The notes: generated by a model from the sequence alone, not told the origin. A DNA stretch of 393 bases from Escherichia coli (GCF_003334255.1 NZ_QOWU01000248.1), one strand, 5' to 3'. Positions 341 to 393 are shown, numbered from the stretch's first letter. Made by a program: numbers and translations.

Positions 341-393
341 GTGGCTACGCAGACTGAAGTTGCCAGGCATTTAAGTCTGACCGATCGCCAGCT
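341..393 (+). CDS. 5' end of a gene for a probable helix-turn-helix DNA-binding protein (partial; continues past the window end)
   Basis: GTG at 341 lies 6 nt downstream of a GAGG core within GAGGTGA (331-337). An in-frame TGA at 335-337 closes the frame just upstream, so 341 is the first possible start. This is the only + frame open to the window end (the others stop at 355-357 and 372-374). Translation is V(M)ATQTEVARHLSLTDRQ; the E-V-A-x-x-L-S-L-T-x-R-Q pattern resembles the helix-turn-helix signature seen in Xre, MerR, excisionase/AlpA-like, Nu1-like and sigma-70 region-4-like folds. Only 17 codons are visible, so the family is unresolved. It contains a rare AGG Arg codon. Confidence 0.45.
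   Translation, partial: MATQTEVARHLSLTDRQ

Follow-up and report, generated by a model that had tools for sequence, protein, structure and literature searches.

A terminase small subunit gene and cos site in a lambda-like Escherichia coli prophage, with an apparently uncharacterised cosB class

The stretch of Escherichia coli DNA analyzed here (393 nucleotides of GCF_003334255.1, NZ_QOWU01000248.1; hereafter the window) very probably carries the packaging start of a lambda-like prophage: positions 341–393 would be the 5' end of its terminase small subunit (TerS) gene and the remainder its cos site, with the winged helix-turn-helix (HTH) domain of TerS binding the cosB repeats and the large subunit (TerL) nicking cosN. 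A previous reading made from the sequence only had left 341–393 as an unidentified HTH protein. That question is resolved, and the gene is an ordinary, already annotated one belonging to a well-understood system. The repeats upstream of it, of the form AACCGGA(C/A)AT, together with the DNA-binding domain of the TerS protein, appear to constitute an uncharacterised cosB class that contains a natural one-residue/one-base variant.

All 393 bases of the window are found at 100% identity in three complete E. coli chromosomes by megablast, and matches with at least 80% query coverage occur in 78 of 5,426 complete E. coli genomes. The same type of search shows 99% identity to the window in PhiR12_1 to PhiR12_5, five deposited phage genomes whose records label the gene 'terminase subunit Nu1'. 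In chromosome NZ_CP116067.1 (L001), RefSeq places at window position 341 the start of a 169-aa 'terminase small subunit' (WP_000235436.1). This gene (L001 8341–8850) overlaps by 29 nt the gene annotated 'phage terminase large subunit' (8822–10750), the product of which aligns end to end with lambda gpA, at 66% identity over 639 residues. The genes after TerL are W (head-tail joining), portal, an S49 peptidase (protease), D (decoration), E (major capsid) and FI, which together make up the lambda head module. In the same chromosome, cos and TerS are preceded by lysis genes, no integrase is found near the TerS gene, and the phage genome is ~50 kb.

The protein itself matches phrog_57 ('terminase small subunit') over its full length in PHROGs (E 1.7e-55). 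In Pfam, residues 49–150 match positions 62–163 of the 164 positions of PF07471, Phage_Nu1 (E 1.4e-18), and model positions 1–61 are unmatched. BLASTP against lambda Nu1 (from J02459) aligns residues 73–164 with lambda residues 86–177 at 46% identity (E 9e-27) and gives no alignment before residue 73; no NCBIfam model matches the protein. Because of the PHROGs, Pfam and BLASTP matches, the C-terminal two-thirds of the protein are clearly Nu1-like. The sequence-only reading had listed five HTH candidates and picked none: the Nu1-like terminase small subunit was the right one, and the remaining four did not stand as identities. Of the features that would be expected of a Nu1 family member, the protein has the Phage_Nu1 profile match, the overlap with a gpA-type TerL at the head of a capsid module, and a lambda-type cos directly upstream; sequence homology to the Nu1 DNA-binding domain is absent. 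Two further PHROGs families divide the protein between them: the DNA-binding half (residues 2–90) falls to phrog_7289 ('unknown function') and residues 56–169 to phrog_1790 ('terminase small subunit'). The protein database also holds many versions of 100–135 aa. These separate halves and short versions suggest that prophage annotations often contain split genes, or gene calls that are truncated or begin at the wrong start.

The N-terminal ~55 residues, which include the 17 encoded in the window, are not alignable to the lambda Nu1 DNA-binding domain, and phmmer and profile searches against PDB sequences returned chance-level matches only (RESC7, E 0.71; a sigma factor HTH, E 0.046; eS10). An AlphaFold (AF2) model of this domain (pLDDT 79) has helices at residues 4–10, 15–22 and 38–54, arranged as a helix-turn-helix, a loop and a long helix, and the predicted fold is MerR/excisionase-like (a MerR-like winged HTH). 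Homology searches revealed three types of N-terminal domain fused to homologous C-terminal parts: type A in the TerS of the window (MATQTEVARHLSLTDRQLRRLQKLPGAP...), type B in enterobacterial TerS proteins (MAFLLNKSDMASSIGISVQAFDKWGV..., or MAFLLNKSDMASSIGISVQAF...), and type C in lambda/21-like proteins (MNVNKKKLAEIFG.DVRTI..WQ). HHalign connects types B and C (the lambda type) with 90% probability (E 1.7e-6); for types A and C the match is marginal (13.5% probability, E 0.002), with the HTH motifs in the same register. On these comparisons the type-A domain is a MerR-like winged HTH as used by TerS proteins, with a lineage of its own at the sequence level. The MerR-like and AlpA/excisionase-like candidates proposed earlier thus describe the fold class only, because the resemblance is at the fold level; as family assignments they fail, there being no Pfam match to either.

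On the plus strand, 341–393 reads GTG GCT ACG CAG ACT GAA GTT GCC AGG CAT TTA AGT CTG ACC GAT CGC CAG CT, which translates without a stop as V(M)ATQTEVARHLSLTDRQ. An in-frame TGA at 335–337, just 5' of the GTG, closes the frame, which leaves GTG 341 as the earliest start available. The Shine-Dalgarno sequence GAGGTGA (331–337, plus strand) is a 7-nt perfect match to the complement of the 16S rRNA 3' end, its GAGG core lies 6 nt from the start codon, and AGG is codon 9 of the ORF (365–367). The GTG start and the AGG codon are kept in 77 of 77 close relatives in IMG/VR. The GTG start, the strong Shine-Dalgarno sequence and an AGG within the first ten codons had all been pointed out earlier, and all are there. 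An early stop or frameshift downstream, named in advance as the finding that would undo the HTH gene, is absent: the ORF is intact at 169 aa in an E. coli chromosome 100% identical to the window, and the objection falls because the RefSeq CDS WP_000235436.1 begins at exactly GTG 341. The window holds the first 17.7 codons of this 169-aa Nu1-like TerS (341–393, plus strand), which in the predicted winged-HTH DNA-binding domain cover helix 1, the turn and the beginning of the recognition helix. Since the ORF continues beyond the window, a mechanical list of ORFs leaves it out. The 17 visible residues had been described as a recognition helix region. They do belong to the N-terminus of an HTH, but in the AlphaFold model they make up helix 1, the turn and only three recognition-helix residues; the recognition helix (residues 15–22) would correspond to positions 383–406, mostly beyond the end of the window. 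A direct repeat here, TTGTGAGGTGAG (310–321) and TTGCGAGGTGAG (327–338), the copies 17 nt apart, duplicates the segment that contains the Shine-Dalgarno sequence, and its first copy is suitably spaced from TTG 327, the beginning of a putative 15-codon out-of-frame ORF that ends with TAA at 372–374.

Upstream of the gene, positions 103–190 are near-identical to the circularised end junction of lambda (cosQ/cosN). The cosQ-like heptamer GGGTCCT (116–122, plus strand), in lambda the packaging termination signal, aligns with lambda CGGGTCCTTTCCGG just left of cosN, and almost all of the relatives examined have it equally far from cosN. The 7-bp cosQ is known to be highly conserved among lambda-like phages (PMC4669245). 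At the cosN nicking site (144–159), the 12-nt cohesive end GGGCGGCGACCT (146–157) and its flanks are the same as the left cohesive end of lambda, and by homology the nicks would fall where they do in lambda. The segment between cosN and cosB (158–190, mature bp 13–45) is near-identical to lambda bp 13–45 and is also found in Stx1 phages, PhiR5_1 and type-B prophages; beyond about 190–192 the window no longer resembles lambda-type and 21-type phages. We measured conservation in a MAFFT alignment of 46 distinct close haplotypes, which replaced an ungapped comparison of 80 loci that was confounded by indels. The cohesive end is 99.8% conserved in this alignment, and the region left of cosQ 47%. 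The 80 near-identical E. coli loci came from an IMG/VR scan and are useful for conservation, not for covariation; re-ranking by a divergent lead sequence brought in no more than eight divergent ones. In the Salmonella relative L006 the cohesive end is GGGCGGCAGCGT (about 1354–1365), differing from lambda at positions 8, 9 and 11, and the cohesive end of Gifsy-1 has been reported with the same differences from lambda (PMC4669245). When the phage collection was searched with the type-A domain by tblastn, no Gifsy-1 record was matched.

The cosB of lambda-like phages is organized as R3-I1-R2-R1, with R2 in the opposite orientation to R3 and R1 (PMC9026076, PMC4669245). R3 occupies bp 50–65 in lambda and bp 48–60 in N15, and the distance between cosN and R3 is critical (PMC9026076, PMC4669245). 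The window contains four matches to CCGGACATG, compared to 0.11 expected by chance, and none of 200 shuffles reaches four. An exact copy of the candidate TerS site AACCGGACATG on the minus strand at 195–205 (mature bp 50–60) is the R3 equivalent, and a second exact copy, on the plus strand at 253–263 and so inverted with respect to R3, is the candidate for R2. The R1 region (283–300) is a near-palindrome in which an exact copy at 283–293 (plus strand) overlaps an inverted copy with one mismatch at 290–300 (minus strand). The start-to-start distance from R3 to R2 is 59 bp in the window, compared to 58 bp for lambda and 60 bp for a type-B prophage of Klebsiella, R2 being inverted in all three. 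Among the relatives of the window this spacing is fixed at 57–59 bp, and R3 lies 50–51 bp from the cohesive end in every relative examined. Given these coordinates and the R3-R2 spacing, R3, an inverted R2 and a third site stand in the lambda positions. Over the 46 haplotypes, R3 is 100% conserved and R2 and R1 97% each, compared to 89% and 76% for the two spacers. It had been said earlier that the identity of the protein would decide how the upstream repeats should be read, and this holds: the repeats sit where the R sites of cosB sit, and they find a conventional explanation as the R sites of a lambda-type cos. In the PhiR12_1 record, a 40-aa minus-strand 'hypothetical protein' (L002 6170–6292, equal to window 170–292) runs across R3, the spacer, R2 and R1. 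RefSeq does not carry this gene, which was in all likelihood called spuriously across the packaging site.

The candidate for an IHF site, equivalent to I1, is degenerate; it lies at 217–229 on the minus strand, with two mismatches to WATCAANNNNTTR and an offset of +21 from R3. Scanning the window with the IHF consensus gives five matches compared to 3.6 expected, which is not above chance. A perfect YAANNNNTTGATW can be read at +21 from R3 in L005, L088, L006 and L089. In several relatives the number of sites falls to two, or to one element at the R3 position (TTCCGGTTCCGGTT). Distant type-A TerS genes have neither R2 nor R1, and their start codon is closely preceded by one R3-position element with a tandem TTCCGGTTCCGGTT; the regions concerned are 1–78 of L177 (phiARM81ld), 130–164 of L178, 350–380 of L092 and 40–70 of L093. 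This suggests that complex and simple forms of cosB recur within one lineage of DNA-binding domains.

Repeats and protein appear to travel together. Phages that share mature bp 1–45 but have a lambda-type, 21-type or type-B DNA-binding domain carry different repeats at equivalent positions. For instance, lambda and an Stx1 phage have CGTTTCC(G/T)TT at bp 53, 111 (inverted) and 155, and in a type-B prophage the repeat is GGTGGTTGTTG, located at about bp 48, 108 (inverted) and 185. Stx1 phages and PhiR5_1, whose match to the window reaches only to 190–192, continue from about 190 with lambda-type or 21-type cosB and TerS N-termini, and therefore cosB and the DNA-binding domain behave as one exchangeable module. 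The two seem to be swapped together, one of the crossover points being the conserved cosN region. More than 100 records of Stx-converting and other lambdoid phages match window 1–122 or 1–190/192 at 91%–95% identity and then diverge completely; the mosaic breakpoint in the window is sharp (186–195), with the boundary at about 190–192.

Within type A, all repeat copies of a genome change together. Proteins with R at residue 20, whose recognition helix reads ..RQLRRLQ.. or ..RQIRRLQ.., are paired with CCGGACAT in every copy; these are the window, L007 from Enterobacter, L091 from Salmonella, L097, L098–100 and L106. Proteins with D, N or T at residue 20 are paired with CCGGAA(A/G)N, again in every copy, in L005 from Klebsiella, L006, L088–090, L094–096, L092, L093, L177 (Aeromonas phage phiARM81ld) and L178 (Pseudomonas phage LPPA33). 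The base that covaries is motif position 6, which is C in CCGGACAT and A in CCGGAAAT. No such link to the repeat base is seen for residue 15 (D, E, A or V) among the type-A relatives, and a variant with W17, D20 and H24 pairs with CCGGAAGT. The phiARM81ld record begins with the cohesive-end-like GGGCGTTAGACC and has CATTTCCGGTT at bp 52–62, which indicates that the core motif and the R3 position are kept across bacterial orders. As the R20 sequences look like a single clade, the association of R20 with C may represent as little as one evolutionary event.

From these patterns of sequence we infer that the N-terminal domain binds the repeats, and the TerS/cosB pair is probably a packaging specificity distinct from those of lambda, 21 and N15. 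On balance we lean, with little confidence to spare, towards a fuller proposal: type-A TerS proteins (MATQxEVAxHL..R..R.LQ) and AACCGGA-N-AT repeats would form a further lambda-like specificity, in which a MerR-like winged HTH without detectable homology to that of Nu1 is joined to a Nu1 C-terminus and sub-specificities are set largely by residue 20, R20 reading the C:G of CCGGACAT and D, N or T going with A:T. A search of the openly accessible literature found no published description of this repeat/TerS class and no published work on binding, packaging or virion ends in this phage group.

One might accept the gene as TerS and still hold that the AACCGGACATG repeats are not its sites, TerS recognizing some other sequence and the repeats being sites of a host protein or another phage protein, or, at 280–303, a terminator or attenuator before the terminase genes. 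We consider this highly unlikely. A terminator scan does find a hairpin with a T-rich tail at 280–303 (−13.2 kcal/mol, z = −3.3 compared to shuffles), and the orientation of R1 in the window departs from the lambda scheme. However, relatives that keep a half-site there do not form the hairpin (L007, L005 and L098; z = −0.5 to −0.8), and because these relatives lack it, we rejected the terminator as the conserved function of the R1 palindrome; the hairpin may be specific to the lineage of the window. R3 and R2 are not hairpins and yet are the most conserved elements. The repeats also occupy the lambda R positions, their copies all shift together with the recognition helix, and each type of DNA-binding domain has its own distinct repeat at equivalent positions, all of which speaks for the repeats as TerS sites. 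The near-palindrome, TAAAACCGGACATGACCGGTTTTG followed by TTGTGATTGT (280–303), lies about 40 nt before the TerS start, and no Rfam family is found in the window at E ≤ 1.

That the annotation is right but the prophage is decaying and non-functional, its cos and TerS features being relics, is in our view most improbable. Pseudogenes are present in the lysis region of the L001 prophage, and the truncated or 'partial' versions of the TerS protein in the databases are numerous. On the other hand, PhiR12_1 to PhiR12_5, which have the same region at 99% identity, are on deposit as complete phage genomes and have E. coli K-12 or C as their host; the TerS ORF is intact; and across the 46 haplotypes the spacers vary but R3 and the cohesive end hardly at all, a pattern that indicates purifying selection.

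Also very remote is a stand-alone regulator or recombination directionality factor (MerR-, Xre/Cro- or AlpA/excisionase-like), with the repeats as its operators. Its N-terminal fold is like that of MerR-family regulators and excisionases, and the repeats lie directly 5' of the gene. But the 169-aa protein has a Phage_Nu1 match over its C-terminal two-thirds, where it shares 46% identity with lambda Nu1; its gene heads a capsid module, overlaps a gpA-type TerL and has no integrase nearby; Pfam finds no MerR, HTH_3 or excisionase match; and the window contains no sigma-70 promoter-like site for operators to control. A MerR-family regulator was rejected on the Pfam result, the Phage_Nu1 C-terminus and the absence of a promoter-like site from the window. 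AlpA/Xis, Xre/Cro and sigma-70 region 4 proteins were rejected for want of a Pfam match in a context of packaging and head genes; for the Xre/Cro and sigma-70 region 4 candidates of the sequence-only reading, which did not hold up, the nearest approaches are Sigma70_r3 in Pfam (E 0.49) and the sigma factor HTH in the PDB profile search (E 0.046).

An Rpp-like 'redirecting phage packaging' protein of a phage-inducible chromosomal island (PICI), beside a PICI cos, is scarcely tenable and was rejected, since Rpps are 135–153 aa and without the C-terminal TerL-binding region, and PICI cosB is without I1, R2 and R1 (PMC9026076), whereas the 169-aa protein here keeps the Nu1 C-terminus, TerL and a full head module follow in a ~50-kb phage genome, and cosB has three sites.

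Returning to the gene as a lambda-like TerS beside its own cos, a mechanism may be proposed along the lines of lambda. The N-terminal ~55 residues, as a MerR-like winged HTH, would bind the AACCGGACATG repeats R3, R2 and R1 of cosB. By homology with lambda, a TerS dimer would hold R3 and R2 through its winged-HTH domains across an IHF-induced bend, the A/T-rich segment between R3 and R2 being the probable place of the bend, and R1 would add affinity. The central and C-terminal Nu1-like parts would oligomerise and hold TerL, which would nick cosN (146–157) at positions 12 bp apart and package the DNA rightwards into the TerS gene. For this phage, the binding and bending by IHF and the nicking of cosN are extrapolated from lambda.

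The likeness to lambda Nu1 and its cosB is extensive. In both, the gene comes directly after cos and overlaps TerL, and the C-terminal part responsible for oligomerisation and TerL binding is homologous; cosQ, cosN and bp 13–45 are almost the same; R3 begins at about bp 50; an A/T-rich segment separates R3 from an inverted R2 some 58 bp away; and a third site precedes the start codon, which is at bp 196 in the window and bp 191 in lambda. The differences lie in the DNA-binding domain and its presumed targets. The type-A domain has a shorter loop where lambda has the GGGKG wing, and the repeat is AACCGGACATG in place of the lambda R type, CGTTTCC(G/T)TTCT. The R1 region of the window consists of two overlapping inverted copies, the exact copy being oriented as R2 and only the one-mismatch copy as R3, whereas lambda has one copy in the R3 orientation. 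The IHF consensus is degenerate in the phage of the window, unlike lambda.

The same design is seen in phage 21 gp1 with cosB-21 and in type-B TerS proteins: a common cosN and TerS C-terminus, a swapped DNA-binding domain, and matching R sites in equivalent positions (PMC4669245). However, the DNA-binding domains of phage 21 and type B are recognizably homologous to that of lambda, and the type-A domain of the window is not. The simple cosB of N15, with a single R3, has a parallel in phiARM81ld, LPPA33, L092 and L093, each with one R3-position element. The TerS start in distant type-A relatives, where it can be read, is at about bp 70–80 (bp 79 in phiARM81ld), and the N15 start codon is at bp 89. 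In contrast to N15, the window has a cosB of the complex three-site kind, and neither its DNA-binding domain sequence nor its R motif is related to what has been described for N15. RppC, a PICI homologue of TerS DNA-binding domains (PDB 6hn7), is without the TerL-binding C-terminus and forms a heterodimer with helper-phage TerS, whereas the protein of the window is a complete TerS of a complete phage.

Only three packaging specificities, those of lambda, 21 and N15, are documented among lambda-like phages (PMC4669245). The pair described here, which apparently adds another, also has relatives in phages of Klebsiella, Salmonella, Enterobacter, Citrobacter, Aeromonas and Pseudomonas. This bears on the cross-packaging and mobilisation of prophages, cosmids and PICI-like elements by given helper phages. 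If true, the type-A class would offer a ready-made natural system for the recognition code between TerS and cosB.

Low expression or horizontal acquisition had been suggested earlier from the GTG start and the AGG codon. The second is trivially true, because the gene sits in a prophage; the first does not follow from one AGG codon. AGG occurs at 5.0 per 1,000 codons across the late region of the prophage, so a single AGG in TerS is unremarkable. This rate is several-fold above the E. coli genome average. The 13 Arg codons of TerS include five AGA, one AGG and two CGA, and the share of AGA/AGG (6/13) is higher than in neighbouring genes (41/277, or 15%; P = 0.007); the highly expressed capsid genes D, E and FI contain neither codon. 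The GTG start and the AGA/AGG richness are weakly suggestive of modest TerS expression. Elsewhere in the L001 prophage, the lysis genes include an inserted DNA methyltransferase gene (5770–6705), which is closely followed by a Rha-family regulator and cos.
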